Shown one piece after another: positions 5,931 to 54,022 of a stretch of DNA of 64,000 nt (positions are counted from its first letter, which is position 1; each line of letters starts with the position of its first letter). The DNA is from Candidatus Poribacteria bacterium. Its GTDB lineage: Bacteria > Poribacteria > WGA-4E > UBA9662. The stretch covers positions 32,001 through 96,000 of the forward strand of contig JAYZAL010000038.1 of assembly GCA_036339735.1 (NCBI GenBank), written 5' to 3'. Under the pieces are notes generated by a model that saw only the letters and a program-made list of their open reading frames with translations, ran no database searches and was not told where the DNA came from. The translations under genes and the position numbers were made by a program.

Positions 5931-6716
5931 ATGAGTTCGATCATCCAAACAAATAAGAACATTACGACTAAACTCAACCTCTTTCTCTTATCCTTTTATT
6001 TTATCTTCTTTTTAGCGACGATCAATCTTGAAGCTGGAGATCTGGTTCTACATCTAACTTTCGATAAGTTCTCCGGGCCTGTTGTGAAAGACCAATCAGG
6101 TTTTGGTCATAACGCAACTTTTAATGTTCAGCCTAGAGAAACTAAAGGCCCATTGGGTAATCAGGCCGCAAAACTGGATGGTGTCAGTTGGGCAGAAATT
6201 GAAGATAGCGACGATCTTGATTTGATGACAGCTTTGACCATCGAGGCTTGGGTGTTTATTAGTTCTGATGAGAAACAAATCGTGGTGGAGAAAGGTGCTA
6301 CTTGGAAAAGAGATGGCGAATACAGTCTATTATTTTACGAAAAGCGAAGACCCGTAATTCAGGCACAAGACCTTGCTGATAATTGTGATGATGAAGCGGT
6401 AGGCGATGAAATACCACGTGATACTTGGACACATATAGCCGGTACCTGGGATAGTAAAGCCTTCAAATTATATATCAATGGTGAATTGAATCTAGAACTT
6501 GAGTGTGCCGGAAAACTATTAAAAAGCCAGGAATCTTTGTATATTGGTAGTCGAGGAGGAGGCCTCCGTTTTCTCAAAGGATCTATTGACGATTTACGGA
6601 TTTATAACTATGCATTAGAAAATAAGCAAATTCGAATGGACATGGAAAATAAGCTATTGATCTCGAAAAAAGAGAAGATCGCAACCACTTGGGGAAGAGT
6701 CAAGGCAGTCAGGTAG
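5931..6716 (+). CDS. Secreted LamG/concanavalin-A-like domain protein with C-terminal KIATTWGRVK motif
   Basis: Signal-like N-terminus. LamG motifs DQSGFGHNA, LTIEAWV, WTHIAGTWD..KLYING and GSIDDLRIYNYAL. Confidence 0.85.
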   Translation: MSSIIQTNKNITTKLNLFLLSFYFIFFLATINLEAGDLVLHLTFDKFSGPVVKDQSGFGHNATFNVQPRETKGPLGNQAAKLDGVSWAEIEDSDDLDLMTALTIEAWVFISSDEKQIVVEKGATWKRDGEYSLLFYEKRRPVIQAQDLADNCDDEAVGDEIPRDTWTHIAGTWDSKAFKLYINGELNLELECAGKLLKSQESLYIGSRGGGLRFLKGSIDDLRIYNYALENKQIRMDMENKLLISKKEKIATTWGRVKAVR

Positions 6717-6803
6717 ATAACCACGTCTATCACTTATTCCGTAATTATTTGAACTTAACTAACCCGTGACGGCCTACGCTTTTATGATAGGAGATAATGT
6801 TCG

Positions 6804-7790
6804 ATGAATTCTGTTCCAACCAAATTTACTCGTTTAGATATGAATCGATTAATCACCTTTACACAACAAGCATTCCAAAAGGTCGGTACGAACGAAAAGG
6901 ATGCGTCTCTTATGGCCAAACTATTGGTCGAAACTGATCTTCGTGGTGTCTTTAGCCATGGTACCCGTCAGCTTGATGGTTATATTCAAATGATGATAGA
7001 CCAAAAGGTTAATCCTAGACCAAATATTCAAAATGAAGTGAGTAGTCAGACTACTGCTATCTTTGATGGTGATGGTGGGATGGGCCATTTACCATCCTAC
7101 CAAGCTGCACAATTCGTCGTAGAGGCGGCTAAATCGTTTGGTATCGCTGGCGCGGTAACTCGAAACCATTTCCACTTTGGAGCAGCTGGAACATACTCAC
7201 GTCTAGCTTTAGAACAAGACTGCATTGGGTTCTCGACTTCAGCTCACCGATTTAGGCCTAGCAAGGATCATTCGATCCTCTCCGCATCTGGCGCATCCCC
7301 CATTAGTTTTGCTATTCCTGCAGGTAAACAGCCTCCAATAGTCATTGATATGGGTGCCTACCTTGGTGGTTCGGGCGAGTTGTCCCAAGATCAGCTATTC
7401 AAATATATTCCAGCCACGTTTTTTAAATTTATTGGTCTAGGAGCAGCTGCACATATGATGGGTGGGTTTATGGCTGGCATTTGGATGTCTGACCCAGAAA
7501 TCGATCAGAATGCATGGGAGGGGGCCAACCAAGGAGCCTTTATTTGTGCCATTGACATTTCACGGTTTCGCGATTTGGAACATTTCAAACAAGAAGTTGA
7601 TCGACATCAAAAAGATATTCAACAAATGATACCTGCACCTGGATACGACCACGCTAATCTCCCTGGCACTTTAGAATACCAAAGAGAAAAAGAATGGGCA
7701 CAAATAGGAATTCCGATTGGTATCGATCACCAATCAATACTCAATGTAGTTGCCAACAAAATAGGCTTGGAACCACTGTTTAGTAATTAA
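6804..7790 (+). CDS. Ldh_2-family (malate/L-lactate/ureidoglycolate-type) oxidoreductase
   Basis: DLRGVFSHG, DGDGGMGH, RNHFHFGAAG and PISFAIP motifs. Confidence 0.85.
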   Translation: MNSVPTKFTRLDMNRLITFTQQAFQKVGTNEKDASLMAKLLVETDLRGVFSHGTRQLDGYIQMMIDQKVNPRPNIQNEVSSQTTAIFDGDGGMGHLPSYQAAQFVVEAAKSFGIAGAVTRNHFHFGAAGTYSRLALEQDCIGFSTSAHRFRPSKDHSILSASGASPISFAIPAGKQPPIVIDMGAYLGGSGELSQDQLFKYIPATFFKFIGLGAAAHMMGGFMAGIWMSDPEIDQNAWEGANQGAFICAIDISRFRDLEHFKQEVDRHQKDIQQMIPAPGYDHANLPGTLEYQREKEWAQIGIPIGIDHQSILNVVANKIGLEPLFSN

Positions 7791-8058
7791 TTGATTTCAT
7801 AGTGATGGATTAAGCGAATTGAAATTTTCTTGGTTGAAAAGGAATAATCAAGGAAAAACTGAATTCTATTCTTTGGAATAACCCAAACCATGTCTGTTAT
7901 TTCTGTTCTGTTATACAAATTCGATTGAGAATTGCCATATTAAAACCAAATTTTAACGAGATTTTTTATTGTGGTTTGTTTATTTTCGGCATCAGAAATA
8001 ATTGAGAAATTCTTAGAAGGATTCGAGCGTTGTAGGAAGATTTAGTTAATTGGCATAA

Positions 8059-8433
8059 ACACATCTTTCTACCTTTGAATCCAATAAAAATGGATATGAT
8101 ATTGAGAACTCGACCCGAAGCAGATTAACACACTTTGGTTCTGGTGCAATCACGGTTTCGGAACTCATAGAAAAATATCCTGAATTGGTACATCCAAATC
8201 TTGAGCTGACTAAAGGAGAAGTAGTTTAGTTTTGTCAATATGAGATAGCTAGAACGGTTGATGACGTGCTTGCAAGACGGTCTCGATCTCTGATAACCAA
8301 TGCGAAGGCTGCTTCAGAAGCCGCAGAGGCTGTCGAAAAAACAATGTCCAAAATACTGAAAAATGATGCCTCTTGGGTGGAGCAGCAAATCCTTATCTTC
8401 CAGAGTTTAGCCAGAAAATATATTAGCACCTAG
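8059..8433 (+). pseudogene. glpD: Remnant of the C-terminal domain of FAD-dependent glycerol-3-phosphate dehydrogenase (GlpD)
   Basis: Frame 1 reads ...HFGSGA...KYPELVHPNLELTKGEVV*FCQYEIARTVDDVLARRSRSL..NAKAASEAA...W.EQQ...F..LARKY*. There is an in-frame TAG at 8227-8229 and the FAD domain is absent. Confidence 0.75.
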
Positions 8434-8528
8434 TCTAAGTTCTTAGGTAGGAAAAATTGAAAAATTAAAGATCAAGCTGGACTAGATAATTTTCTTTAAA
8501 ATTCGTTTTCTATCTAAAGTCTTTGGTT

Positions 8529-9257
8529 CTAAATGCTTCTTTTTTGGTTGACATATGTCCCAATGTTTTCTACCGTATCAACCCATATATCTCCCTTCTT
8601 CAGAAATTGGCACAACTTTTCTAAAACAGAAATATTGACGGTTTGTTTACCTTGATGGCTAATCTCGTGCCCAAGAAATATTAGCCAAGAATTATTCTTT
8701 CGTGCGTAATCTAAATATAGCTGCACCGTTTCAAAAGTCACATCATCCATATCAAGTGCGGTTACCTGTGCTAGATCCGTGAAGGTTGGATCGTTGGGTA
8801 CTTCATTGAAGGCATCACGACCAACAAGGAAATATTCTGCTACCAATGGCACGTAACTCTTGACATCTTTGGATCTTCCAACGAACTTTTGTCCACAAGG
8901 GTAGGCAAATGTCTTCGGCTGTATGCCTAGTTCTTGTTCGATGCAGGAGTTTGCTTTTAAGATCTCATCTCTCATTTGTTCTAGGTTGTATTCTTCTAGG
9001 GGCTTGTGTCTGGCAAAAGAAAAATTGCCACTACATGGGTGATTGAATGTATGATTACCAACCTCATGCCCATTTTTGATCGCCTGTTCCCACTCAGTTT
9101 TTCTACTTCGCATCGGCTGAATTGAAACATAAAATGTTGCGTGAATATCATAGCTATCAAGTAATGGAAGACCATAATCAACTTGACTGGGTCTAGCGTC
9201 ATCAAACGTTAGGCTAAGTGCAGCCACTTTACCTTCTGGCCAAAATCCAATTGACAT
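8529..9257 (-). CDS. Polysaccharide deacetylase (NodB/CE4-like)
   Basis: SLTFDD, GHEVGNHTFNHP and FAYPCG motifs. Confidence 0.85.
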   Translation of the reverse strand: MSIGFWPEGKVAALSLTFDDARPSQVDYGLPLLDSYDIHATFYVSIQPMRSRKTEWEQAIKNGHEVGNHTFNHPCSGNFSFARHKPLEEYNLEQMRDEILKANSCIEQELGIQPKTFAYPCGQKFVGRSKDVKSYVPLVAEYFLVGRDAFNEVPNDPTFTDLAQVTALDMDDVTFETVQLYLDYARKNNSWLIFLGHEISHQGKQTVNISVLEKLCQFLKKGDIWVDTVENIGTYVNQKRSI

Positions 9258-9260
9258 AAT

Positions 9261-10385
9261 TCAGTTTCCTAGTTTTGAATAAATCCAATCTTTATCTATA
9301 ATGGCTACATGTAAATCGAAGACATCAGGATTTTCCCATCCACTCCGACCGTTGTCACATGTACGATTTGGTCCATAAACACAGTAGCTTATTATTGCCT
9401 TCTCATCGTTTAGCCAGTCGCATCCAATATTAGTAAAGTTATACTCTTGATGACTAGCTAGATCGCCAACTTTATGCCAAGTACTACCCTGATCCTTTGA
9501 AAGAGCAATACTCAACGGTGAGCGCAATCCATAATGATGATGGACGGGGTCGTACCAGCTGTCATTCCAAAGCAAAATTAGATCTTCAGTGTTAGGAATC
9601 GTCCTCAAACAAGTAGATGATTCTGGAGCCTTCAATCCTGTTGTCTGGGCGAGTTGCCAATTTTCTCCTTCATCATTAGACCTAGACAAAAATACTGATC
9701 CTAGCTGAGTTCTCAGCGACATCACTAATTCGCCATTTGGCAACTCCGCCACGGAAGATTCCATTGCACCTCGCATGGGAAGATCAAGGGGCTGAGCGTT
9801 TCGATTCCAAGTTTGTCCATCGTCATCACTGTAATAGCAGTGAACAACATTATGTTGCGAAGCTTGGTGGCCTTCCCCACCATGGAATGGTAGCAGAATT
9901 CGTCCTGATTGAAGTTGCAACAAACTGGTAGAACCACCTTGTAGCCACTGACCAGGACTTTTTTGCCAAATTGGGTTTTGCTGATGAAAGGAATATCCAC
10001 CATCAACTGATCTCAGCACATCCATGGTACTACTTTCACCACCTGTGTGCCCACGCAAACAAACCAGCAAAATATCACCATTCCTAAGTTTGCGTAGGGC
10101 AGGTGCCTGCACATTATTATCAGACGGGTTACAAGCGACTATTCTTTCCTCGTCTTGCCAAGTCAATCCTCCATCATGAGACCATTTTGCTGCTATATCG
10201 CATTTGCCAAAATCACTACTCCCTCTACTACTGTTACGGTACTTGTGCCATACAGCCAATAGTGAATCATCATCTAGCTGAGCGATAGAGGCGGTATCAT
10301 TGCGCGGAGTCATTTCACCCGACACACCCACAACACTGTATGCGACTTCTGATTGTCTAGTATACAGGCTTAATCTTTTGTCCAT
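9261..10385 (-). CDS. BNR-repeat sialidase-like protein
   Basis: Several Asp-boxes: SHDGGLTW, SVDGGYSF, SDDDGQTW, SNDEGENW and SKDQGSTW. Confidence 0.85.
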   Translation of the reverse strand: MDKRLSLYTRQSEVAYSVVGVSGEMTPRNDTASIAQLDDDSLLAVWHKYRNSSRGSSDFGKCDIAAKWSHDGGLTWQDEERIVACNPSDNNVQAPALRKLRNGDILLVCLRGHTGGESSTMDVLRSVDGGYSFHQQNPIWQKSPGQWLQGGSTSLLQLQSGRILLPFHGGEGHQASQHNVVHCYYSDDDGQTWNRNAQPLDLPMRGAMESSVAELPNGELVMSLRTQLGSVFLSRSNDEGENWQLAQTTGLKAPESSTCLRTIPNTEDLILLWNDSWYDPVHHHYGLRSPLSIALSKDQGSTWHKVGDLASHQEYNFTNIGCDWLNDEKAIISYCVYGPNRTCDNGRSGWENPDVFDLHVAIIDKDWIYSKLGN

Positions 10386-10388
10386 TAA

Positions 10389-11210
10389 TTAACTCCTACT
10401 CATCGTTTGTTCATATCTTTTGGCCATTTCAGTCCTCTGTTGTTGAAGATAAATTTGTTCCAACTCTCGAGCATTATCTTCACATGGGACTCTGGGTACT
10501 TCAATTATTGCCGTAGTAATCTGATCGTTTCCCCATTTGTAGGCGACAATTTCTCCATGGCTAATAATCAAGTTCATACCTACGTTGGCTTCAACTATTG
10601 GCACTCCATTTTCTCTGGCTCGAGCCAAGACCGTTTGGTTTTGTGCTTTACTCTTAGAACCATATGATGGAATCAAAATCAAGTTAGCGCCATCTAACAC
10701 TAATGTTCGGATGATAAGTGGATTCCACCGGTCATTGCAAATAGCAATCCCAACTCGCCCTAGAGGAGTGTCAAAAGCACGTAACACCTGTCCAACTCGA
10801 TTGAAGTTCCAGGATGGATGAGTACCTTCCGCTAATTGTGTTTTATGATATTTGCCAGAAATTTGCCCGTCATAATCGATAAAAATAGCTGCATTGAAAA
10901 TCTCGTTTCCAATCCGCTCTGCAAAGCCGAAACTGATACAAGTATTCAGGCTGTTTGCCAAGCGTTGAAACCGCCGGATATAAGATCCATTGATCGGTTC
11001 TGCTAAATCAAGCATTTCCTCTGGAGTTCGAATTTGGTTGATCACATCCATTATGACGTAACCTTCTAGGACGCCTTCAGTAGTGACAATGAGATCTGGT
11101 TTATCTTTGGCTGCTTCAACAAAGAAAGACTCCATTTTATCAGCGTTAGTATCTTTATCCCATTTAACAGGTCGAAGCGAAATCGCAGAAACTTTGAATG
11201 CGTCAAACAT
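10389..11210 (-). CDS. Carbon-nitrogen hydrolase (nitrilase superfamily)
   Basis: Glu-Lys-Cys triad contexts TTEG, KYHKTQL and IAICND. Confidence 0.85.
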   Translation of the reverse strand: MFDAFKVSAISLRPVKWDKDTNADKMESFFVEAAKDKPDLIVTTEGVLEGYVIMDVINQIRTPEEMLDLAEPINGSYIRRFQRLANSLNTCISFGFAERIGNEIFNAAIFIDYDGQISGKYHKTQLAEGTHPSWNFNRVGQVLRAFDTPLGRVGIAICNDRWNPLIIRTLVLDGANLILIPSYGSKSKAQNQTVLARARENGVPIVEANVGMNLIISHGEIVAYKWGNDQITTAIIEVPRVPCEDNARELEQIYLQQQRTEMAKRYEQTMSRS

Positions 11211-11598
11211 ATGGCTTGTACTACCAAATCGGGGTAATTTAGTGTTAGTTTCTTATTCTAGACAAAAAAAACATTATTAGCAAGAAACCGGGCCAAAAAT
11301 GGACATTTTCCCGTATAGAGGAATAAAATCAAGTCCCGCCCCAAATTACAAAATAGCTGTTGTTTCTCTAAAAAAATTATCGCTCAATTTAAATACTTAA
11401 ATATTTAAATACAGAAAGCGGAAAATAACGAGAAATAAAAATCTAGCTAGCCCATACATAGTTCTTAAGATACATCAACCGATTGACAGTCTTCATTTTA
11501 GCTATTTTTATATTTCTATTGGAGGTAATCCCCAATCAATAATAGAAATATAATTTTGGGTGTTGTACAATAGCTCCCTACTTGCGTAGGAATTTACC

Positions 11599-12420
11599 AT
11601 GACACCTGAATAACGTTTCCTACTTGATGTCTCAGGATATCTGCATTTGAAAAGCGTATTAATCGGTAAAGAACTTGAGCAATGCCAAAAGAGTGTAGAA
11701 CAGTGTATTCGTACACCTGTTGATCAACTTCCATCAGGAATGAGTAGTTCTTACCCTGGTACAGATACGAGTATCGGTGGAATTGGTAGTGGGTTTTCAT
11801 ACAATAAATCATTGGAGCAGTTGCTTTTCCATCCGGACACTTGGCCTATTGTCAAAGAACTAACCGATAACAAACCTCGGTTCGATAGAGGTACCTTAGC
11901 GGTTAATACACATCTTACTACTCAAATGACCCCACTTTACTGCGCTAGAGAGGACTTTGGCTGGCAAAGTACTCGATATGGGTATAGGAACGGACGCATA
12001 TTCTGTGATACTTTTGTCATCTTCTTTTACTTCACTGATGTTTATCCAGGCGATGGTGGATTAATTGTTGTGCCGGGTTCACATAGGGTTGAGGTTCAAC
12101 GCCCTGCAAATTACTTTTTTCCTGATCTCAAGAACCCGAAAATTGATAATTTACCACAGATTACAAACATAACTCCTAAGGCTGGAGACGTCATTGTGAT
12201 CTCAGAACTTCTAACCCACGGAGCATTGATATGGAAACCGACAGACCGAGAAAGAAGATTTCTAATCCTTTGCTACAACCCACAATATTTTTATTATCAG
12301 AATGGTATTCGTGATGAAGTGATACCTAGACTTTCACCAGAAACAAAAGAATTGATCGCTTTTGCCTCTTTTACAGAAACCAAGGATATTTGCAACCGAG
12401 AAGTAATTGAGTTATCGTAA
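11599..12420 (+). pseudogene. PhyH-like Fe(II)/2OG oxygenase with a premature stop at codon 5
   Basis: ATG 11599 gives MTPE*RFLLDVSGYLHLK, with TAA at 11611-11613, in frame with the 11647 ORF and matching paralog starts (MTEEQKYLFDLQGY). The first iron-ligand His position reads Tyr (LYCARED). Confidence 0.75.
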
Positions 12421-12677
12421 TTCCACACTAGCTCAAATAGCATTTAGGTTGCGTATTACAACTCAGCTTCCAACTCTTTATCCTAAGATCCAGATAGCAA
12501 TATCCGACTTCATTTGTATTGAATCAAAAAATCACCTACATTTACCTGAGATGCGTACTGAATAACTGTACTAATCTACGGCCCCCAACTTCGCTCCGGA
12601 AATTTTACGATATCGTTTGCAATTACTTAATCACAGCCGAGCTATCAAGAGGGAAGAACTAAAATTTTTCGTAGGGC

Positions 12678-13133
12678 ATGAATGGAAATAAACGCTTCAA
12701 AACTAAAATTGATTGGTGGTTGGCTGCCTTATTGTGCGTATCGCCCCTCATTTCTCTTCTTACGCTGTTAGGTTTCTACTTACTTGGTATTTCCTATGCA
12801 TGGCTAAGCTGGCTTGGGGTTCTAATTGTTGGTTTAATCTACGCTGGGCTGATTTTCCCGTTGTATTATGAACTCGAAGAAAAAACTTTGTTGATACGAT
12901 TCGGGTGTATTCGTTCCAGAATACCTTACCAACGTATCAACAAAGTTATTCCGACTCGCAGTACAAGTTCCAGCCCAGCCTTATCCTTAGATAGACTCTA
13001 CATAGATACAGGGGATAATTTAGCCGTTAATATATCCCCAGCCAATAAAATTCGTTTCTTACAAGCTCTGGAAGAAAAAGCCAATCATCTTGTATTGATC
13101 GACAATCAGTTAGTAATAAAAAATGAGTTATAA
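12678..13133 (+). CDS. Membrane protein with a bacterial PH domain (bPH_5-like)
   Basis: F..KIDWW, two transmembrane segments, and the SSPALSLDRL.I...ISP motif. Confidence 0.75.
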   Translation: MNGNKRFKTKIDWWLAALLCVSPLISLLTLLGFYLLGISYAWLSWLGVLIVGLIYAGLIFPLYYELEEKTLLIRFGCIRSRIPYQRINKVIPTRSTSSSPALSLDRLYIDTGDNLAVNISPANKIRFLQALEEKANHLVLIDNQLVIKNEL

Positions 13134-14109: not shown

Positions 14110-14226
14110 TTAATTCTATGTTTTTCGCACTGCATCTAAATCAATTCTTGTTTAAGATAAGGTCTAATAATTTTTGTGTTTTAGCTAGCTCAAATCATAC
14201 ACTAAATCAACTGAGTAAGTAACCCT

Positions 14227-34507: not shown

Positions 34508-35296
34508 ATGAAAAATCGAATTTGTCAGTTAGTGATCATTAATATTCTTTTGTTACCTTTCTGTTTGAGTTTCTCGGCGGTAATTGATTTGGGTACGGTA
34601 GAAGTATCATATCTTTTTGAAGAAGGAAGAGGTAAGTTAGCAAAGGATGCATCTCCTAACAAGAGAAATGGCTCCTTGGAAGGTGGTGTTAAGTACGGAC
34701 CTGGAAAGTTTGGACAAGGTTTGATTTACGATGGCAAGGACGATAACTTGATAGTCAGAAATTATCACGGTATTAGTGGGAAAAATCCGAGAACCATTTT
34801 GTATTGGTTCAAGAGTGCTAGTACACGAGAACATTCTTGGGTTAAGTGGGGAGTAGTCGAACCAACCAGAAAGTATTATGTGAGGGCCCATGTGGCTGGT
34901 GCAATATGCTGGCTTCGAGTAGAAAACGCCGGTGGCAATAATTGGGGGGGAGATGACGTTTGCGACGGCAACTGGCATCACCATGCTATTGTTTTTCCCA
35001 AAGGATCTAAAGACGTTCAAGACCACCAAATCTACGTTGATGGAAAATTAAATGGGAAGAACGGCGCAGCTAATCCTATGGATACCGATGGTGAAGGGCA
35101 GGAAGTTGTAATGGGCGATTTTTTGGCGCACCATGCTTTCATGCATGGCTCATTCGATGAAGTTGCCATCTTTAGCATTGCACTAACGAAAAAGCAGATT
35201 GAATTGGTTATGAACAACGGACTAGCATCGGTTTTAGCCATCGATCACAAGGATAAACTTTCCACTAACTGGGGCTTGATTAAGTCTACTTATTAA
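34508..35296 (+). CDS. Secreted LamG-like domain protein with C-terminal KLSTNWGLIK motif
   Basis: Signal peptide. YLFEEG.G, GKFGQGL.YDG, DGNWHH, IYVDG and FDEVAIFS.AL motifs. Confidence 0.85.
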   Translation: MKNRICQLVIINILLLPFCLSFSAVIDLGTVEVSYLFEEGRGKLAKDASPNKRNGSLEGGVKYGPGKFGQGLIYDGKDDNLIVRNYHGISGKNPRTILYWFKSASTREHSWVKWGVVEPTRKYYVRAHVAGAICWLRVENAGGNNWGGDDVCDGNWHHHAIVFPKGSKDVQDHQIYVDGKLNGKNGAANPMDTDGEGQEVVMGDFLAHHAFMHGSFDEVAIFSIALTKKQIELVMNNGLASVLAIDHKDKLSTNWGLIKSTY

Positions 35297-35407: not shown

Positions 35408-37015
35408 TTATTCTAGTTGTTGATCTAGTTTATTTAAATCCGTATTTCTTAAGCTAAGATTGGCTTTATATTGATAATAAGTGTTGAGTACTTTTCCAAC
35501 GTAACGCTCGGTCTCACGAATCAGAGGGATATCATGTTTGACCCGTCCAGGTCCAGCATTGTAGGCCGCTAACGCTAAGGCGTAATTACCATCATACCGA
35601 TTTAGCATTTGGCGTAAGTACTTCGCACTGGCCTCTAGATTTCTTCTAGCATCGAACCGTTGATCTACTTTAGGGTCAATGGTTGGGGATAAAGGATCGT
35701 TGTACTCAGGCACTATCAAACCAAGATCTCTTGCTGTGGGTGCCATTAGTTGTCCCAACCCGACCGCACCACTTTTGGAAATGGCACTTGGTTGAAAGCT
35801 CGATTCCATTTTAATTAGAGCCATCAGATATTCTACTGGGATTTGGAACTCCGTTGCTATCCGTTCTGTCCTAGATGAAGTTTGTGTGAGCATTACCTCA
35901 TTTTGGGTTAACTCATCGTTTTTTTTGTCATTTCGAGGTGCAAGCCGATCGGTGTTTGATATCCGAAACTCTCTCTTGTTTGTTGATTTTTCTGTTTTTG
36001 TGATTACATTCCGATGTATGAACTGGCCTATGGCGAAATTGAGCGACAGATAATGCCTAAAGTCTTGTTCGTCATACTGATAGGCATAATGTAAGGCTGT
36101 ATCGAATTGTTCGATTGAAGCACCAATTCTCCAACTTAAACGAGGTTGAGGTGTAATCGATGTTCCCAATAATTGTAGAGCAAATCCGCTTCTGATCCAT
36201 AAACCATACTGGCCAATCTCAGCACCTAAGCGGCATTGCCAATCGTTAGCGATATTGGTACGGATATCTAAACCACTCCTAATATTCACTTGCAATCCAT
36301 CTTTGGGTTGGCGCGTATACCAAAAGGTATCAATTTGGAGATTACTACTCCCATCAACGGACTGACCAACTCTTAGTGGTACCTGACTATCAATCAATAG
36401 TTCGTTCTTAACATTAGGATTATCGTATACTGAACTGAGGCCAAGATAATGATAAACCAACCCTACCGATACTTTAGGATTGGGTCGTAAAATCAATCCA
36501 ATATCGTAAGGATAGACAAAGGAACGTGCAATGGATCGGTCAGGTTTTAGATGAAGGTGTTGGCGAATGCCGAAATTAGCGCCGATTTGAACTTTGGCCC
36601 CTACAGATCGGGCTATTGTCAACATAAGTTGATTATCGCCCCACATCTGCATACCGATAGGATTCTTACGACTAGAAGAAAAAAAACGGTCATAAGCCAA
36701 TAAATCTGTTAGCCCAATACCCACTGTGGCAAGAGAAAATGGTCTCTGGCCTTCAATTTGTATAGGAGATGTAAAAGCAAGTGCAGTTTGAGAGAAATCA
36801 TAACTAAAATCGGACTGGCCCAGTAAAGCTACAGTAGCAGGATTGTTAAATAGGCCACTGGCTCCGTATGAGCTACTAGCTAATTGTCCACCTAAACCAA
36901 TTGAACGCGCATCTAACGAGACTTCAGCTGATACTTGACCGAATAGAAGTATACAACAGGCAGTAATGACAAGGAAAATGCTCGTCAAATAGTTTTCATT
37001 TTGGTTTGGTCTCAT
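35408..37015 (-). CDS. Outer-membrane beta-barrel (FadL/PorV-like N-terminus) fused to a lytic transglycosylase (SLT) domain
   Basis: N-terminal DARSIGLGG...GLFNNPA.VA followed by amphipathic strands ending HYLSLNF. C-terminal SLT motifs IKMESSF, SGAVGLGQLM, ALAAYNAGPG and ETERYV. Confidence 0.75.
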   Translation of the reverse strand: MRPNQNENYLTSIFLVITACCILLFGQVSAEVSLDARSIGLGGQLASSSYGASGLFNNPATVALLGQSDFSYDFSQTALAFTSPIQIEGQRPFSLATVGIGLTDLLAYDRFFSSSRKNPIGMQMWGDNQLMLTIARSVGAKVQIGANFGIRQHLHLKPDRSIARSFVYPYDIGLILRPNPKVSVGLVYHYLGLSSVYDNPNVKNELLIDSQVPLRVGQSVDGSSNLQIDTFWYTRQPKDGLQVNIRSGLDIRTNIANDWQCRLGAEIGQYGLWIRSGFALQLLGTSITPQPRLSWRIGASIEQFDTALHYAYQYDEQDFRHYLSLNFAIGQFIHRNVITKTEKSTNKREFRISNTDRLAPRNDKKNDELTQNEVMLTQTSSRTERIATEFQIPVEYLMALIKMESSFQPSAISKSGAVGLGQLMAPTARDLGLIVPEYNDPLSPTIDPKVDQRFDARRNLEASAKYLRQMLNRYDGNYALALAAYNAGPGRVKHDIPLIRETERYVGKVLNTYYQYKANLSLRNTDLNKLDQQLE

Positions 37016-46708: not shown

Positions 46709-47431
46709 ATGTTGAATATCGCAGAATTGAAATCATTCGAATTGAACGGATATCATGTTATTGATAATTTACTGAGTAGGAATCTTTTGGAGCAAACACG
46801 TGAAACTTTCGATCGGCTAGAAAGCTACCGTAACCTGCTCGATTTAGATGGTTTTTTTTTGCAGATAGCAAACCATCCAGACTTATATTCGGCCATTGCT
46901 TCTATTCTCAATTCTCCTCCCCAATTACTCCAATTTGATGGCATTAACCGACAACAGGGACAGGGAGATCAAACGTGGCATGCAGATTTCTTTTTTCATT
47001 GTGACCGCCCATTAATGCTCAACGTCGGGATTTATTTAGATGATTTAGAGCTAAATAACGGACCATTGTATGTAGTTCCTGAATCACACCATTTTGGCAA
47101 AACTCCTCCATCAAACAGCGATCACTTGCCTAACCAATTAAGCCTTACCGTTTCAGCTGGCAGTGCAGTAATTTTCGATTGTGCTTTATGGCATAGAGGT
47201 GGAGGTAATGTTTCTGATCAACCACGACGTGCTATTTTTCCCACTTACGGTCATTATTGGATGAAGCGATTTGAGTCTTGGATGCCAGAACCAACTTCTA
47301 TGCGTTTTCCTAATGCTGATACAGCAGAATTGAGAACCTTACTCGGCATCAGCTTGGAGGAACCAAGTGCTTACTCTGGTTATGACGAAAAATTAATGGT
47401 TAGAAAAGACTCAGACGGTAACTGGATTTAG
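46709..47431 (+). CDS. PhyH-family Fe(II)/2OG dioxygenase (HAD)
   Basis: WHAD, NGPLYVVPESH and LWHRGGGN...RR motifs. Confidence 0.85.
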   Translation: MLNIAELKSFELNGYHVIDNLLSRNLLEQTRETFDRLESYRNLLDLDGFFLQIANHPDLYSAIASILNSPPQLLQFDGINRQQGQGDQTWHADFFFHCDRPLMLNVGIYLDDLELNNGPLYVVPESHHFGKTPPSNSDHLPNQLSLTVSAGSAVIFDCALWHRGGGNVSDQPRRAIFPTYGHYWMKRFESWMPEPTSMRFPNADTAELRTLLGISLEEPSAYSGYDEKLMVRKDSDGNWI

Positions 47432-47502
47432 TAGATAAATAGTCAAATTCCATTTACATTTACTTACGATGGAGTGCGATATGTCTTCAGAAAGTATCTG
47501 TA

Positions 47503-48912
47503 CTATCTTAGGTGTGGTAAACAATTTGGTGTTGCTTGTCCCAAGACTCGTAATTTTTGGCCATTTGTAAACCCTTCAGGTCTATTGTGAAGTTGGTTGG
47601 CTAGAATGGTTCGCCAGCGCTTTATTTCATTTTGATGGCACGATTCAGTGGCTAAATTTATCGTTTCATTGGGATCATTAATTAGATCAAAATAATGTTC
47701 CTCACCGGTTCCAGGATACCAGATATATTTGGTTTGCCCATCGGTTAAATATTGTTGACCGCTGTTGAGTGTCGGTACTTGGGCGCATTCACCGTGTACA
47801 TATTCTCGCCAATTAGCGCTTTGGTTTTGAATGATTGTAAGAAGGCTTATACCATCCACACTTTGGGGTATTTTTACACCTGCTAAATCTAAACAAGTCG
47901 GCATAATATCCATTAGCTCTACTGGATGATTTAAGACTTGCTCCTGTGGGAATTTAAAACTCTGAGGGAACTGCATAAAAAACGGTACACGGGCAGAAGA
48001 CTCGAAGGCATTCCTTTTTCGAATCCACTGATGATCGCCCAACATTTCTCCGTGATCGGAAACAAAAATAATCACGGTTTCTTTGGGTAGAATCTCCAAA
48101 ATCCGTCCAACTTGGTCATCAATATGGTTAATACAACCGTAATATCCAGCTTGCATCTGCTTTTGGACTGTGTCATCTAGGCACACACGCCAAGAATTGA
48201 CAGGTAAACCCTTTTGTGGCTGGTCGAAAATTTTGGCCCAACTACCAACTACTGGTTTGGGTAAGTTCATTTGTATATATCGATTAAAATAGACAGATGG
48301 TGGAGTCAGTGGTTGATGTGGTTGATGGAAACTGACTTTCAGAAAGAACGGTACTGTCGGGTCCCGACGTTCTAGGAAATTAATAGCACGATCGGCACAC
48401 CAATTAGTGAAGTGAAACCTTTCTTCTAAGTGAAATGGTCGGGCCGTGTACCCATTCTGACTGGTTCCATGAGCAAGACCGGACCTTGGCTGATTGAGAC
48501 CGTTTTGGATTAGAAATCTTTCATAATCATCAAAGACTGGATGTGGTCTCGGGCTATCAGCCCAATCAGATGAGCAAAAACCGTACAATTTACGTGGTGG
48601 GCTGAGGTGTAATTTCCCTACTAAATGAGTTTGATAACCAACTTTAGATAGTTCGCCAGGAAGTGTCGGTCCGGAGAGTGGAGCGTGATGATTCATGAAG
48701 ACCCCGTGTGAGCTAGCCTTTTGACCGGTCATTAACGTACGTCGAGCCGCTACGCAGACGGGACAGGCACTATACCCTCTTCGAAATCGAATGCCACGAC
48801 TAGCAATTTGATCCAAGTAGGGCGTTTGTAAGACAGAGTGTCCATCGACCCCCAAACAATCTCCCCTTTGCTGATCAGTGACTAACAATAAGATATTAGG
48901 TTTTTTCGTCAT
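47503..48912 (-). CDS. Sulfatase (CxAxR variant)
   Basis: PNILLLVTDQQRGD, CVAARRTLMTG, GKLH and SDHGEMLGDH motifs. Confidence 0.9.
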   Translation of the reverse strand: MTKKPNILLLVTDQQRGDCLGVDGHSVLQTPYLDQIASRGIRFRRGYSACPVCVAARRTLMTGQKASSHGVFMNHHAPLSGPTLPGELSKVGYQTHLVGKLHLSPPRKLYGFCSSDWADSPRPHPVFDDYERFLIQNGLNQPRSGLAHGTSQNGYTARPFHLEERFHFTNWCADRAINFLERRDPTVPFFLKVSFHQPHQPLTPPSVYFNRYIQMNLPKPVVGSWAKIFDQPQKGLPVNSWRVCLDDTVQKQMQAGYYGCINHIDDQVGRILEILPKETVIIFVSDHGEMLGDHQWIRKRNAFESSARVPFFMQFPQSFKFPQEQVLNHPVELMDIMPTCLDLAGVKIPQSVDGISLLTIIQNQSANWREYVHGECAQVPTLNSGQQYLTDGQTKYIWYPGTGEEHYFDLINDPNETINLATESCHQNEIKRWRTILANQLHNRPEGFTNGQKLRVLGQATPNCLPHLR

Positions 48913-48929
48913 CTTTTTTTATTGGATAG

Positions 48930-50990
48930 TTAGTCAATCGGCTGGATACGACAGCCATACCAACTCCAAGTTCTTCCTTTTGAATATACAATTTGGGTTA
49001 GTTGTTTTTCCGTGATTGTTATATTGTAGTTCTGTTCAATAATATCATCACTGGTTCTTCTTTGATTTTTTTGGGAAATTCCGTTGGCGATTACACCAAT
49101 CGATCGTCTATCAGTCTGAAAAAAGTTAGTCACGTTATATCTCCCATTCGGCAACGCTACTCTAAATACGCCATCTGTCTTGGCGGTCCCAGAAATCGAG
49201 TCAGCCAACAAGGGTGTTACAAACTGCCTATTACTAACAGTTGCAGTCAATTTACCTTCCGTGATCCAGCCATAACAATGTTCGTAGTTTTCATAACGGC
49301 TGATAGGAGAAATTTCAACCGAACCGTCTAGCGAAACCGATTGGTCTGGTTGAAAATCAAAGATCAATGGTCTATTGTCTGATTGATTATGCCACCACCA
49401 GTGGATATTAGGGATAGGTTCTTTTAGCTGATATAACGTATAGCGTGGAGCAACATGAAGACAATTGTAAGAGTTCCTAAGTACTACCCGTTCTAAATTA
49501 TCAATACCCTCTTTAGTCATTCTCCAAGCCAACACATAATCGGCTGGACGAGGATACGAGGTTTTTGGTCCAGAGTATGGGCGACTACTCATCTGATAAC
49601 GATAGTTAACCGGAAAATAATCGAATGCAGCTTCGTAGTTTCTCAGTAAAGCTACTTGGTTATTTAAGCAATAGTAGCTACCGACATGAATAAAAGGCTT
49701 AACATATTCAATCACCCCAAGCGATTCTGAAAATTTCTGGCCTGGTTTATCTAAGTAAAGTACAACTGTCTTGTTTTCTTCAATTAATCCAACACTTTTG
49801 GTCATTTCGGCAATTTCTCGGTCTAGAGCCAAATTATCATGAATAGTATAAGATAAATGCCATAAGGAAAGGCCTAATAAAATAACCATTACGATATTTT
49901 TTAAATAACGATGAAGAGTAACAGTTAGAAATGGTAATAACAACAGAACAAGATAAATATGGACACGGTCGTTAATCCAGCCACCACCAGATTGAATATT
50001 ATTAGGTGAAATATAGTAGATAATGGTGAATAGAATAAATATGACAAAAAATGAGTCAGTTAATTGTAGGCTGAACCTTGATTGCTCTAAAAAATGTTTG
50101 GCAATACTTTTTACTCTTTGCCATAAAGTAAGAAAAAATAAGAAAAATAGCAGCCCGAAGAGTAGCCTACCGATCCAAATGTGGTCCTCCCGAAAATATA
50201 CCAATGATTTCAAGTTAAAAAAGTATTCGTTTAGCCAAGCTAATTTCCGGTAATTCTTACCATATCCACTCGTTTTTGTTAGGTAGTAGGTCAGGGAAAC
50301 TACATAAAACGGTAATATGTAGCCGACAAATCGCAATAAAGTTAATAGACGTTCAAAAATGAGTGCTGACCATCTTTCCGGCCAGAGTAGAGATCGTAGA
50401 CCAGCCAAAACTGAAATAGAAATTACGAGTAGTAAAAAGGACTGAAAATGGCTGAAATACGTCAGCATCAACAGTATGTAAAAGATCAATAATCGTTTGA
50501 AAGTCAATTTAGAAAAATGTTTCCACCAATATCCAAGTGTAGAAAAAAAAATAGGTATACTGAGCGAAAAATTATAAAAACCCATCATTAGTAGATAGTG
50601 GTAGGAGTAAACTAAACCGACAAGCGCAAAAAGTATTTTTCGTTTGTCAATTGAGTGTAGGAAATAGAGTAGAGATAGTGGCAGACCAAGTACACACAGA
50701 CTCAAAATAATTTTCTCACAAATTAGTGGTGGAAAAACGTACATTAGTAAAGCCATCAGGAGGTGTCCACTCCAGTTTGGGAAAGGGCTCCAATTTAACT
50801 GGTAAACATCTCGAATACGAAAATTATGGTGGTGGTGATATGTTTTGAATACTTGTGCATTATAAATGTGGCTAGGACCATCCTGACTTGGAAAATATGT
50901 AACCATCCAGACAGGTAACAAATGAACCGCTAGTAGACTCACAGCAAATAGATATTTGATCGACTGACTTGGCTGTTGGTTCACACGCAT
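48930..50990 (-). CDS. Polytopic membrane protein, GT-C-like, with a C-terminal carbohydrate-binding-like domain
   Basis: Loop motif PSQDGPSH after the first transmembrane segment and many further TMs. C-terminal FDFQP...YGW...FRVALPNGRYNVT. Start ATG 50990 is preferred. Confidence 0.6.
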   Translation of the reverse strand: MRVNQQPSQSIKYLFAVSLLAVHLLPVWMVTYFPSQDGPSHIYNAQVFKTYHHHHNFRIRDVYQLNWSPFPNWSGHLLMALLMYVFPPLICEKIILSLCVLGLPLSLLYFLHSIDKRKILFALVGLVYSYHYLLMMGFYNFSLSIPIFFSTLGYWWKHFSKLTFKRLLIFYILLMLTYFSHFQSFLLLVISISVLAGLRSLLWPERWSALIFERLLTLLRFVGYILPFYVVSLTYYLTKTSGYGKNYRKLAWLNEYFFNLKSLVYFREDHIWIGRLLFGLLFFLFFLTLWQRVKSIAKHFLEQSRFSLQLTDSFFVIFILFTIIYYISPNNIQSGGGWINDRVHIYLVLLLLPFLTVTLHRYLKNIVMVILLGLSLWHLSYTIHDNLALDREIAEMTKSVGLIEENKTVVLYLDKPGQKFSESLGVIEYVKPFIHVGSYYCLNNQVALLRNYEAAFDYFPVNYRYQMSSRPYSGPKTSYPRPADYVLAWRMTKEGIDNLERVVLRNSYNCLHVAPRYTLYQLKEPIPNIHWWWHNQSDNRPLIFDFQPDQSVSLDGSVEISPISRYENYEHCYGWITEGKLTATVSNRQFVTPLLADSISGTAKTDGVFRVALPNGRYNVTNFFQTDRRSIGVIANGISQKNQRRTSDDIIEQNYNITITEKQLTQIVYSKGRTWSWYGCRIQPID

Positions 50991-50994
50991 TATG

Positions 50995-51852
50995 TTAATC
51001 GATTTTTTTAAGAGCTTGGCGGTCTTCCTCGATCCACCTTTGCCATAATTCAGATTCGGGAATCGTAGCATCAACCTGACGAGAAAAGATCAGATCGTCA
51101 ATACCGAACATGCGCATTAATCGACGATCATTATTAACTTGAGCCATCCGGAGAATTTTTTTCGTATTGGGACCACTATGATGATCTCGATGGGGTAAGT
51201 AGCTTTTATTGTAGAATCGACTCAGAAAATAACGGGGATCTGTACTGAAATTTGGTGAAGCAGCATGAATCAAAGCGGAATGGATTATAACAACATCACC
51301 TATTTGAGGGTAAATTAGTTGTTCTTTTGTTTGAGCGTGAAACTGTTTTTGTACTAGGTCAAGATTTCGGTGTGAATTTGGTAAAACTCGAAGTGGTCCT
51401 ACATCCTGATCTACATTTTGAAAATAAGTTAGAACATTACAAGCATGAGGAGGTTGATATGATTTTGTTTGACCTACCGATAAAGCCCACATATCCCGAT
51501 GCCAATTTCGCGTTTCGACTTTCACTTGTTTTTTTTCAGCTGGTTCGGTTAGGTTAATTCGTAGGCTTTCCAATTGGATGAAGGGACCCATAAGAATTTC
51601 TAGAAGGCTTAAAATGGAAGCGTTTGTGACTGCCGGCAGCATGACTTCAGGTGCATGCTCCACTAAATTATCTAATACGATTTGTCTACCCAGCCCATAC
51701 TGGGCTGGTCGGTGAATTGGTTCAATTTTCTGAATTAACTGGTGAAAAGTATTCTTCCAAATCTCTACTTCATTCCGACCAATTAAGTCTTCAACTATTA
51801 CATATCCATCCTCACAGAACTGCTGGTAATATTCGTTATTGATTGTTGTCAT
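50995..51852 (-). CDS. PhyH-family Fe(II)/2OG dioxygenase (HRD)
   Basis: EDGYVIV, WHRD, GPLRVLPNSH and LIHAASPN...R motifs. The start is uncertain (51852 or 51978). Confidence 0.85.
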   Translation of the reverse strand: MTTINNEYYQQFCEDGYVIVEDLIGRNEVEIWKNTFHQLIQKIEPIHRPAQYGLGRQIVLDNLVEHAPEVMLPAVTNASILSLLEILMGPFIQLESLRINLTEPAEKKQVKVETRNWHRDMWALSVGQTKSYQPPHACNVLTYFQNVDQDVGPLRVLPNSHRNLDLVQKQFHAQTKEQLIYPQIGDVVIIHSALIHAASPNFSTDPRYFLSRFYNKSYLPHRDHHSGPNTKKILRMAQVNNDRRLMRMFGIDDLIFSRQVDATIPESELWQRWIEEDRQALKKID

Positions 51853-52243
51853 TTCCAGCATAATTGATCCAGTAATCTCTTGGTGTTGTCTTCTAACACT
51901 TTCTATCATAAGAGAGGCCTCATAACGAGTCAACACAAAATGGAAAGTGATAATAACCCAAGTACTCATAAAACTCATTTAACTAAGCATTATATTTGTA
52001 TTTCAAGGTAAGAAACTGGTTGTCAAGTTACCAGAAACAAATAATAGATTTATTACTGTTTATTATTTTTACTCCTAGCTAGCCGGTTGTAGTCATTTTT
52101 ATCAAAACCTAACTTGGACGAGATTCAGTTGCAACTCAAACTTGTCTAATATGCTTTGCTAGTTGTGTTTTTTTATTTACAATTATGACTCTTTTTTTTA
52201 TAATCTCCCATATATGGCTTGAAATCACAGGAGAATAATTCAA

Positions 52244-53059
52244 ATGTTTGAATCTAGGTCAATTGGTGCCTTTATTGGGTACCTATCTATTATTTTGATG
52301 GTTACTAGTACCTCTTTGGCATCTGTCCAAGGAACAGTACTTTTCCGAGCCGATTTTGAAAATGATAAGGGAGATAACACGCTGGCTAAGTGGAAACCAG
52401 ACAGCGATGGGCAAATTTGGGAAATTGCTGATTTTCCTGGTAGTGGTAAAGGATTACTTAATGCGAAAGAAGGTTGTGGTGTTTCAGGTAATACACCATT
52501 ACCCGGTACCGAAAATTTTAGCGACGGTATTATCCAGCTAGACATGTCTTGGCAAGATGATGATAGTTGGGGCATTATCTTCAGAAAGTCAGAAGAAAAA
52601 AAAGGTTATTTGGTTACCTTCGGTTACAATGAAACACCAGCGGTTATTGTTGCTCTTCTAGATGAAGGTTGTGGAGAGACTGGGAAGTGTAACGATCAGA
52701 CCCAATGTGAGAACAATCCCGATAAAACCTTGGGCCAGAAACCACATGGTTTGTTTGAAATCAAAGACGATGGAAAGGGTACTGGAACTCAAGACTTGAG
52801 TGTTGTTTACACTGGTGTTATAGAAGCCAAAGGGGATAGTATCAAGGTTTGGTATCATGAACGAGGTAAACCAAAGGGAGACCCAGTGATTGATATCAAG
52901 GATAACACCCACAAAAAGGGACAAGTTGGCGTCTGGCATGAAAGCCAAGGTAATTGTATGATTGATAATGTTGTAGTACGAACTTTCGATGCCGGGACAT
53001 CAGTCGACGCTGAAAGTAAGCTTGCGACTTCTTGGGCTAGGATCCGTTCGGCATACTAG
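52244..53059 (+). CDS. Secreted lectin-fold (DUF1080/TSP_C-like) protein with C-terminal KLATSWARIR motif
   Basis: Signal peptide, ADFE, DDDSWGIIFR..GYLV, a Cys-rich insert and GQVGVW..IDNVVV. Confidence 0.7.
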   Translation: MFESRSIGAFIGYLSIILMVTSTSLASVQGTVLFRADFENDKGDNTLAKWKPDSDGQIWEIADFPGSGKGLLNAKEGCGVSGNTPLPGTENFSDGIIQLDMSWQDDDSWGIIFRKSEEKKGYLVTFGYNETPAVIVALLDEGCGETGKCNDQTQCENNPDKTLGQKPHGLFEIKDDGKGTGTQDLSVVYTGVIEAKGDSIKVWYHERGKPKGDPVIDIKDNTHKKGQVGVWHESQGNCMIDNVVVRTFDAGTSVDAESKLATSWARIRSAY

Positions 53060-53095
53060 TTTACATACTTCTGTTGTTAATACCGGACTTAGGGA

Positions 53096-53134
53096 AAACA
53101 AAGGCCAGCAACTTAGAGTCGCTGGCCTTTGTTT
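53096..53134 (+). terminator. Stem-loop, probable intrinsic terminator or processing site between the paralogs
   Basis: Perfect 14-bp stem: AAACAAAGGCCAGC (53096-53109) / GCTGGCCTTTGTTT (53121-53134). Confidence 0.7.
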
Positions 53135-53212
53135 AATCCCATAAATTCTGACGGAATAATGGCTAGCCTATAATTTACGTTTAAATAAATTCAATCAGAC
53201 AGGAGATTAGTT

Positions 53213-54022
53213 TTGAAGAAGCAATTTTATATGCTGTTAGTTGCATTAACTTTAGGTTCAATTTTTTCTTCCTATGCTCAAGTAGTCTTTTTTGCTGATT
53301 TTGAGTCGCAAAACAAACCCATCAATAAGGCAGGAAACTACAAAGGACCCGCCGGAACTAAATGGGAAAATTCTGACTTTTTGGCTGCTGGTGGTGGGAA
53401 AAAGGGATTGAAGCAAGCTGCAGAAGGATGTGGTATTTCTGGTAATACCAAACTACCTGGAGTTACTAAATTTACTGATGGGGTCATCCAATGCATTTTC
53501 TCATTTGGAGATGATGATGGTTTTGGTGTCACTTTTCGTAAGAAGGGTGATGATAAAGGCTACTTGGTTGCTTTTGGTTATAACGAGACAACGCAGGTAA
53601 TTATTGGTGATTATGCTAACGGTTGTTGTCCTGACCTCCAGTGCTTGGATCAATGCGGGTGTGAAAATGGTGGTAAAGAGTTGCTCGGTGTAGATCACGG
53701 TCTTGGTGGAGGTCTTCCACAAGATAATAAAACTGCGATGCTTGGTCGAGTTGAAGTACAAGGTCAAAAAATCCGAGTATGGTATAAAAAACTTGCGGAT
53801 GTTAAAGGTTTTAAAGTAGATATGCCCTCTAATAAATTAGGTAAGCCTGTTGCAGAATACAACAAAGCTAACTACCAATCGGCAGGTTCAGTTGGTATTT
53901 GGCATGAAAGCTGGGGACAAGGAATTGTCGATAGCATCTTAGTCACAGGTCCAGGGTTCTTTTCCGTGGATCCCGAGGAAAAGCTAACTACTAGTTGGGG
54001 TTTTGTCAAAGCCGCATACTAA
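53213..54022 (+). CDS. Secreted lectin-fold protein, paralog of 52244-53059, with C-terminal KLTTSWGFVK motif
   Basis: Shares ADFE, EGCG.SGNT.LPG, DDD.G..FRK, KGYLV.FGYNET, DQ..CEN and VG.WHES with the upstream gene. Confidence 0.7.
   Translation: MKKQFYMLLVALTLGSIFSSYAQVVFFADFESQNKPINKAGNYKGPAGTKWENSDFLAAGGGKKGLKQAAEGCGISGNTKLPGVTKFTDGVIQCIFSFGDDDGFGVTFRKKGDDKGYLVAFGYNETTQVIIGDYANGCCPDLQCLDQCGCENGGKELLGVDHGLGGGLPQDNKTAMLGRVEVQGQKIRVWYKKLADVKGFKVDMPSNKLGKPVAEYNKANYQSAGSVGIWHESWGQGIVDSILVTGPGFFSVDPEEKLTTSWGFVKAAY

Follow-up and report, generated by a model that had tools for sequence, protein, structure and literature searches.

What do the near-identical tails at the ends of four secreted proteins do, and what reads them? 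The question arises from a 64,000-nucleotide stretch of Candidatus Poribacteria DNA (here called the window, at its full length), for which a preliminary description had proposed an uncatalogued, lineage-specific sorting tag, an interpretation that holds in part. The four signal-peptide ORFs are all open on the forward strand and carry the tails as described (Table 1), and none of the 52 remaining ORFs listed for the window has the strict motif, which occurs four times in the six frames, each time three residues ahead of a stop. The two families that had been distinguished among the four proteins are LamG (PF13385) and a 3-keto-disaccharide-hydrolase-like family, but both are sandwiches of the concanavalin-A-like clan, so that the window alone is weak evidence that the tag is portable. 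For the protein at 52244, Atlas neighbours at 0.97-0.98 bear PF06439 and are Poribacteria; loci related to its tandem paralog were Poribacteria in 40 of 40 cases, and the single-sequence fold of that paralog reached a pLDDT of only 33. In both LamG proteins of the window the tag falls beyond the end of the Pfam domain.

Table 1. Tagged proteins of the window and their C-terminal tags (bit scores are against the genome profile).
Feature	Position	Strand	Support
Secreted single-domain LamG protein, 261 aa, tagged	5931..6716	+	Open ORF; PF13385 match, E 4e-24, spanning residues 86-234
Tag copy 1, 18 residues and stop; most diverged of the four	6660..6716	+	17.9 bits
Secreted single-domain LamG protein, 262 aa, tagged	34508..35296	+	Open ORF; PF13385 match, E 3e-12, spanning residues 75-231
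Tag copy 2, 19 residues and stop	35237..35296	+	24.1 bits
Secreted Cys-rich 3-keto-disaccharide-hydrolase-like (ConA-type) protein, 271 aa, tagged	52244..53059	+	Open ORF; PF06439 only at E 0.09
Tag copy 3, 19 residues and stop	53000..53059	+	25.5 bits
Tandem paralog of the 52244 protein, 269 aa, tagged	53213..54022	+	Open ORF; same BLAST cluster as the 52244 protein
Tag copy 4, 19 residues and stop	53963..54022	+	24.9 bits

A two-part tag on exported proteins

Approximately 100 proteins of this genome end in [ASP]V[DE]PxxKLxTxW[GAS]x[IL]K, a fixed-length tag of about 17 residues that lies outside the folded domain and has two parts, first [ASP]V[DE] and then KLxTxW[GAS]x[IL]K. The tail as first described is thus shared and real, but its motif needed revision: the residue after the tryptophan is G (37%), A (33%) or S (30%), and the tag begins further upstream, with an [ASP]-V-[DE]-P that precedes W by ten residues. 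The opening reads [LTF]-[ASP]-V-[DE], with V or I in 98%, and 4-10 residues follow the W in 90 of 91 tags. Spacing is fixed, without indels, and a hydrophobic face is flanked by Lys, with Lys and Thr interspersed.

Across the genome's 65,421 six-frame ORFs the strict motif was found 30 times, 29 times no more than five residues from the stop and once 13 residues from it, which is not chance. All 83 matches to an iterated profile at 16 bits or above lie within 15 residues of the stop, while the 18 matches at 8-16 bits comprise 13 terminal and five internal ones. A signal-peptide-like start, called by a hydropathy rule and not by SignalP, is present in 80 of 82 carriers versus 875 of 2740 background ORFs. 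The tail had been described as absent from lipoproteins, which is true of the ORFs of the window but not of the whole genome, where two of 91 carriers have a lipobox-like start. Tagged proteins have a median length of 261 aa, and the longest is 530 aa.

The evidence for portability is supplied by the passengers found genome-wide, as unrelated LamG, HmuY, cohesin, CBM9, F5/8 and DUF3108-like proteins all end in the tag. The largest cluster of carriers is a single LamG family (36 of 91) and many others are ConA-like; a Pfam match was obtained for 13 of the 37 non-LamG carriers, and 19 homologs were found for one CBM9 carrier. Every one of the 39 small LamG proteins is tagged, and the three large ones are untagged. 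Among HmuY proteins, a lipobox is present in none of 17 tagged members versus 19 of 30 untagged ones, a contrast that probably reflects one duplication event and not 17; judging from these sequences, the tag may take the place of the lipid anchor in HmuY.

The tag is uncatalogued insofar as sequence models can tell, being absent from those of Pfam and NCBIfam. The NCBIfam sorting-signal models (LPXTG, PEP-CTERM, MYXO-CTERM and GlyGly-CTERM) did not match it, and the models for the type IX secretion system's (T9SS) C-terminal domain (CTD), TIGR04183, PF18962 and PF13860, found no match in the four window proteins, 37 other carriers or 54 tails. Like these tripartite sorting signals, the tag is short, portable, C-terminal and basic at its end, its unrelated exported carriers number from dozens to hundreds in a genome, and in its shorter form (below) it follows choice-of-anchor domains. 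Tripartite signals have a transmembrane helix; the tag, in which V and W are only 10 residues apart, has none and therefore could not stay in the inner membrane to meet an exosortase, rhombosortase or myxosortase. The preliminary description was therefore right to set it apart from LPXTG, PEP-CTERM and the T9SS beta-sandwich. GenBank phages gave only a chance-level match (E 3-7), PDB sequences a single match at E 0.33, and an Atlas search with the tail alone two fragment clusters, both under 0.9. Full-text searches of openly available papers listed none on this tag.

Distribution and a shorter cousin

The tag is present in all 61 Poribacteria genomes. A profile search of 1.84 billion representatives returned 470 matches at E <=0.001, and among the best 150 of these the five matches with multiple stretches are unrelated repeats; ten representatives were looked up, of which two clusters are named Poribacteria and one belongs to a sponge assembly. 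The tag is not, as had been supposed, lineage-specific, because a shorter cousin, [PA]VEx[ST][TS]WGxIKxLYR-stop, is abundant outside Poribacteria. This cousin has 12-14 residues and ends at the stop in 132 of 132 cases. Its taxonomy is thin, with 20 proteins looked up and one cluster named Eisenbacteria. It follows choice-of-anchor domains, with choice-of-anchor J, V, W or X over the cut-off in five of 98 proteins. The small-V-acidic element upstream, which the search pattern did not require, is present in 45 of 129 short tails versus 4 and 2 in control windows. Comparison of the long and short profiles gave a probability of 91, a partly circular value because the short set was selected on W-G-x-I-K. 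Within the 28 long loci that carry a short tail, a T9SS-type domain is found in 11 and a C25 gene in one, which we count in favor of a link to T9SS, and the T9SS-domain proteins of those loci show, by eye, [GA]-[VI]-[EDG] in their linkers.

The peptide in front of T9SS domains, and the machinery

In other proteins the peptide stands directly before a T9SS-type domain: the W form does so at 42 places in 35 of 61 genomes, with none for a reversed-pattern control, and the xTG-codon form at 156 places in 22 of 61, again with a control of zero. Together, one or the other is found in 51 of 61 genomes, at near-fixed spacing and in a flexible linker, behind passengers that by eye are unrelated (WD40, FG-GAP/UnbV-like and a sugar-dehydrogenase-like propeller). 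In fused forms L or F takes the place of W, the 120 matches including 32 strict and about 29 relaxed ones, and G-x-[IV]-K is conserved, a core for which the searches select; its retention is not simple decay. Internal occurrence had been set beforehand as an observation that would speak against a sorting tag. The peptide does occur internally, but informatively, where a T9SS C-terminal domain follows, an arrangement that speaks more for type IX secretion than for an entirely separate translocon.

In this genome at least 82 proteins carry the tag only, versus one degenerate fusion of tag and T9SS domain, and 49 of the 50 proteins with a T9SS domain are at least 466 aa long. This split in size, tagged proteins being small and T9SS-domain proteins large, counts for the tag as a minimal T9SS signal. 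When tag and domain were modelled together, the domain folded with confidence (pLDDT over 90) into a sandwich that was matched best in the PDB by the domain of PorU, and the tag formed a low-confidence coil (pLDDT 57-59). PorU cuts in such flexible coils, with the consensus PT/GI, a small residue at +1 and Ile at +2, in the portion of PMC11969387 available to us. Most tags show [ASP]-V-[DE], which can be set beside this motif (small at +1, I or V at +2), but Pro occupies the presumed +1 site in 14% of the tags of this genome and in 53% of short tails, and Pro is not among the residues given as tolerated at +1 in that portion. Since only four of 35 ordinary T9SS-domain proteins of this genome have the small-V-acidic element 14-30 residues before the domain, it is not the general Poribacteria cut site.

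For Poribacteria, Kamke et al. 2014 (PMC3909097) report T9SS-type domains but no structural genes, and do not settle the pathway; to these domains genes of the SprA, PorU and PorV families can now be added. This genome has two PorU proteins, encoded by C25 genes in which the His and the Cys motif are both present, with PorU matched at the NCBIfam cut-off (420 bits); an SprA-like protein below its cut-off (133 bits against 200); and a PorV family, over its cut-off, of about 12 members. PorU-like proteins are present in 61 of 61 Poribacteria genomes, and the 13 genomes searched for the PorV family have 9-17 matches each, several of them single-copy and without adjacent cargo. For the PorL/M motor and PorK/N ring, GldL, GldM and GldN gave no match in this 92%-complete genome, and 14 control genomes were equally silent. 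The neighbours of the 91 carriers include no T9SS gene among recurrent ones and no candidate reader; the only enriched ones are members of large metabolic families and further carriers, 41 of the 91 being adjacent to one. One PorV group appeared to be linked to tag genes in genome G002, but this was so at one of 30 loci, and a second group at none of 30. Modelling the tag in one job together with three PorV-family orphan barrels, without folded controls, scored 0.00 against a mark of 0.32 and carries no weight for or against binding.

What may read the tag

We put at about even the chance that the tail is a minimal signal by which the divergent T9SS of Poribacteria and related uncultured phyla, with its PorU, sorts small surface proteins. 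A tagged protein would first be exported by Sec through its Sec-type signal peptide; the W-containing amphipathic part, replacing the beta-sandwich domain, would then be bound by a PorV-family shuttle, or by SprA or PorU directly, and the protein would cross the outer membrane. A PorU paralog would cut just before [AS]V[DE] and join the new C-terminus to a surface glycolipid, so that the cell would be covered with about 100 different small proteins of lectin-like and ligand-binding kinds. In large cargo the full beta-sandwich domain would be kept or added, leaving the W and L of the tag free to drift. The HmuY lipobox contrast and the choice-of-anchor domains fit a tag that fills an anchor slot. 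Against this reading we count Pro at the presumed +1, the mere four of 35 proteins sharing the element, the G-x-[IV]-K conserved in fused forms, the lack of linkage to either of two orphan PorV groups and of T9SS genes among recurrent neighbours, the failure to find GldL, GldM or GldN, and a tag with none of the T9SS motifs B, D and E.

Compared with the type A CTD, the tag likewise combines a Sec signal peptide with a C-terminal signal lacking a membrane span, opens with a small-V/I-acidic stretch in a flexible linker, occurs in genomes with SprA-, PorV- and PorU-family genes and is found fused before that very domain. It differs in having no beta-sheet, an invariant W and small single-domain cargo, and is known here from sequence. 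According to PMC11969387, known signals require three or more beta-strands bearing motifs B, D and E and are 43-55 aa at their shortest, and type A CTDs, including the short ones of Prevotella intermedia, have 43-82 residues, versus about 17 for the tag and 12-14 for its cousin. The type B CTD (TIGR04131) is a precedent for a second signal class with its own shuttle, PorP/SprF, but according to PMC12618676 it is a folded domain mostly encoded beside that shuttle, whereas tag genes are scattered and unlinked.

A bolder version, which we consider possible yet doubtful, is that Poribacteria, Eisenbacteria and other uncultured phyla use a third class of T9SS signal, a peptide of 12-17 residues in long and short forms that joins a PorU cut site to a W-G-x-I-K recognition element without a folded domain, is the most numerous T9SS signal there, and is read by a dedicated PorV shuttle and by one out of two or three PorU sortases, in a T9SS without a recognisable PorL/M motor.

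Poribacteria are major sponge symbionts and marine particle dwellers. If the T9SS reading is true, T9SS could be addressed by a peptide one third the length of the shortest known signal, the poribacterial surface would bear a coat of small binding proteins, from 20 to well over 100 of them, now annotated as hypothetical, and proteomics would find the last 17-20 residues lost and a glycan on the new end. The tag also offers an immediate means of annotating thousands of proteins across several uncultured phyla, and might be used in engineering as a very small display tag. Even without a T9SS link, an uncatalogued sorting signal with no membrane span implies a reader not yet described.

It is also conceivable, if unlikely, that the tag is not cut, and that its basic amphipathic L-xxx-W-xx-I helix docks to a surface or periplasmic receptor or to outer-membrane lipid, a fused T9SS domain being removed just after the tag to bare the same C-terminal peptide. 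The fixed spacing, the Lys-flanked hydrophobic face, the apparent replacement of a lipid anchor in HmuY, the G-x-[IV]-K retained in fusions and the Pro at the supposed cut site all suit such docking, as do the tagged cohesin-domain proteins, which may be compared to cellulosome anchoring proteins, these ending in anchoring modules. However, W and L, the obvious docking face, are what relaxes in fused forms, the small-V-acidic element is kept at two spacings in two lineages and would be needless for a pure helix, and the outer-membrane crossing of tag-only proteins such as HmuY is left unexplained.

We regard as improbable a reader unrelated to T9SS (a channel, transpeptidase or C-terminal protease common to these phyla), with the fusions arising as a result of both modules being added to the ends of proteins. 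Tag genes show no linkage to T9SS components, the tag does not resemble motifs B, D and E, tag-only proteins far outnumber the lone degenerate fusion in this genome, and choice-of-anchor domains also occur with non-T9SS anchors; but the fusions are in fixed register across 51 of 61 genomes, with several unrelated passengers and a context-specific shift in consensus, and short-tail loci are rich in T9SS cargo. Finally, that the tag has no sorting role, and is a structural terminus, governs stability or degradation or is an inherited remnant of one expanded lectin family, as the 36 LamG carriers and many ConA-like ones could suggest, is highly improbable and largely refuted by the tag's portability to HmuY, cohesin, CBM9, F5/8 and DUF3108-like proteins, its position beyond the Pfam domain end, its concentration on signal-peptide proteins and its conservation across the phylum.

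A C-terminal tag on small exported proteins

The preliminary description had proposed that four ORFs of the window share a tail, K[LI]xTxW[GA]x[IV][KR], as an uncharacterised sorting signal, and the ORFs and their C-terminal tails are present precisely as it stated. Among 65,421 six-frame ORFs of the source genome (4.3 Mb, 92% complete), this motif occurs 30 times, each at most 13 residues from the stop. A tail profile, the follow-up suggested there, was built, iterated and run on the genome with a threshold of 16 bits, and all 83 matches were C-terminal. A carrier set of 91 was retained for analysis, and a further 11 terminal matches were found where about 1.7 are expected; because 9 of these are plausible carriers, the genome should encode about 100 tagged proteins. 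The consensus (n = 91) is [LTF]-[ASP]-V-[DE]-P-x-x-K-L-[TAS]-T-x-W-[GAS]-x-[IL]-K without indels, the W position being fixed by the anchoring of the tags on W, and 1-7 residues separate the last K from the protein end in 90/91.

Under a hydropathy rule, 80/82 complete carriers have a hydrophobic, signal-like N-terminal stretch, compared to 875/2740 background ORFs, which bears out the association with signal peptides described earlier. The carriers form 28 BLAST clusters, the biggest of 36 LamG proteins; Pfam matches were retrieved for 13 of the 37 non-LamG carriers, with 3-keto-disaccharide hydrolase, other ConA-like, CBM9, F5/8, cohesin, HmuY and DUF3108-like domains. Carriers have a median of 261 aa and a maximum of 530 aa, and in this genome the tag is found on 39/39 small LamG proteins versus 0/3 LamG proteins above 1000 aa. 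All 61 Poribacteria genomes, which are kin and not independent, contain the tag, with copy numbers from 21 to at least 131 per genome, and all 40 loci related to the protein at 53213 belong to Ca. Poribacteria. Two carriers combine the tag with a lipobox-like N-terminus (contigs C32:110-1078 and C25:7737-8756).

The tag is real and undescribed. No entry of Pfam, NCBIfam or the PDB matched it, which also settles the check for an existing NCBIfam model, and searches of openly accessible full-text papers listed no report of it. Kamke et al. 2014 (PMC3909097) saw T9SS-type domains in Poribacteria but reported no genes for the structural components, and a term search of the accessible text of Jahn et al. 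2016 and the Aplysina metaproteome found no mention of tagged lectins. Very probably the tail has a function in sorting proteins in the envelope or anchoring them, by whatever route; that it is structural or vestigial is largely excluded and highly improbable.

Features located in the window and the source genome
Feature	Location	Strand	Remark
Tagged LamG protein	window 5931-6716	+
Tagged LamG protein	window 34508-35296	+
Tagged 3-keto-disaccharide-hydrolase-like paralog	window 52244-53059	+
Tagged 3-keto-disaccharide-hydrolase-like paralog	window 53213-54022	+
PorV/FadL-like barrel start with C-terminal lytic transglycosylase domain, 535 aa	window 35408-37015	-	Weak NF033709 match, residues 31-78
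441-aa ORF, internally repeated GMxHLPRxIDKARA-type motif	window 59747-61072	-	One motif copy seen at start
Very long PorU-like sortase genes	contigs C38:117621-123827 and C16:26838-32993
Heme-uptake operon, two HmuY paralogs (one lipoprotein, one tagged)	contig C80:12282-19910 (locus L261)

Relation to type IX secretion

The tag fails membership of both the T9SS type A domain and the tripartite CTERM signals, yet of the two it works most like the former. One protein of the source genome has a degenerate tag immediately before its T9SS domain. W-G-x-[ILV]-K lies five residues upstream of NYPNPF at 42 places in 35/61 genomes, 41 with identical spacing (control 0); the passengers are unrelated, and most of the 25 loci read retain the V[ED]P element upstream. 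A fused form with another residue replacing W occurs at 156 places in 22/61 genomes at the DNA level (untranslated), and in proteins the replacement is L or F. The predicted structure of the fused end is a confident sandwich, with a PorU domain as closest PDB entry, and the tag is a low-confidence coil. Prevotella intermedia PorU cleaves in the coil before the T9SS domain with consensus PT/GI (PMC11969387), a sequence to which the tag's first element is similar.

In the source genome, 36 proteins have NYPNPF, a motif of the T9SS-type domain in Poribacteria, and 50 have this domain by profile, 49 of them at least 466 aa long. An SprA-like gene scored 133 bits, below its cut-off; PorU reached its own, a second C25 gene is also present, both C25 genes have His and Cys motifs, and there are 12 PorV-family matches. 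PorU-like genes were found in 61/61 genomes, many of which have them at two or three distinct loci (matches, not copy numbers), and PorV-family genes number 9-17 in each of 13 genomes. GldL, GldM and GldN gave no match in this 92% complete genome or in the control genomes, and its T9SS, with SprA-, PorV- and PorU-family genes, is possibly motor-less or very divergent. Poribacteria genomes have two or three PorU-like sortases each (about 1700-2200 aa); Bacteroidota have one as a rule, and the multiple sortases possibly serve one signal class each. At least six PorV-family ortholog groups are conserved (loci L242-L301 and L322-L381), several directly behind specific large T9SS cargo or a PorU gene and three as single-copy orphans. 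Many T9SS cargo (e.g., proteins P0223 and P0270) show another, apparently also uncatalogued, junction: a helical segment ending LxxLLxxLxP, then the domain.

It is observed that the tag is portable and terminal, goes with signal peptides, keeps a fixed register where it is fused to the T9SS domain, occurs alongside SprA-, PorV- and PorU-family genes, follows a size split and takes an anchor slot. In the scheme we favor, a PorV-family shuttle would recognize the W element (dedicated shuttles exist for a second T9SS signal class, PMC12618676), the protein would transit SprA, a PorU paralog would cleave just before [AS]V[DE], and the new end would be joined to a glycolipid; as one joint scheme, we give this even chances. 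Against this scheme, Pro is frequent at the presumed +1 site, the tag's cut-site-like element occurs in only 4/35 ordinary T9SS cargo of the source genome, the tag is without beta-strand motifs, and no linkage of tag genes to T9SS genes was found in the loci examined. The tag could instead be a docking peptide that is not cut, for which we see perhaps one chance in a few; a reader independent of T9SS is improbable.

Tag and lipobox in HmuY

In the heme-uptake operon, two HmuY genes lie behind a TonB-dependent receptor gene; one HmuY is tagged and has no lipobox, the other has a lipobox and no tag. Across 30 loci, the lipobox rule was passed by 0/17 tagged versus 19/30 untagged HmuY, a contrast probably stemming from a single duplication. 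Because HmuY of Bacteroidota works at the cell surface, this analogy suggests that tagged proteins exit the periplasm.

A short tail outside Poribacteria and other window genes

A metagenome scan with [ST]-W-G-x-I-K-x-L-Y-R then TRR listed at least 132 distinct matches, all with a true stop and none with TGG. Their carriers are small, and among the matches listed 58 are complete, of which 44 show a signal-like start when the earliest possible start codon is used; G+C is 0.32-0.73. Pattern-free positions show [TV]-[PA]-[VTA]-E, five residues nearer W than in the Poribacteria tag; under a strict rule, 45/129 listed short tails have this element versus 4 and 2 in control windows. One source-genome protein ends in the bridging form PVQWGRIKSLY. 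The two forms are likely homologous, judging from a short motif, and their profiles match in a partly circular comparison. One short-tail cluster is named Ca. Eisenbacteria, and most are without a name. Among the long loci listed, T9SS-type domains are encoded in 11/28 and a C25 gene in one. Of the short-tail proteins scanned (98 of 114 of at least 70 aa among the matches listed), 5/98 have a choice-of-anchor domain of type J, V, W or X above the cut-off, and therefore the tail occupies an anchor slot.

Of the untagged window genes, the 441-aa ORF presumably belongs to the DUF5069 family. The transglycosylase gene converges on the tagged gene at 34508 and has a paralog at contig C64:49348; its product may join an outer-membrane barrel and a murein transglycosylase in one chain, the barrel part being predicted from a weak match.
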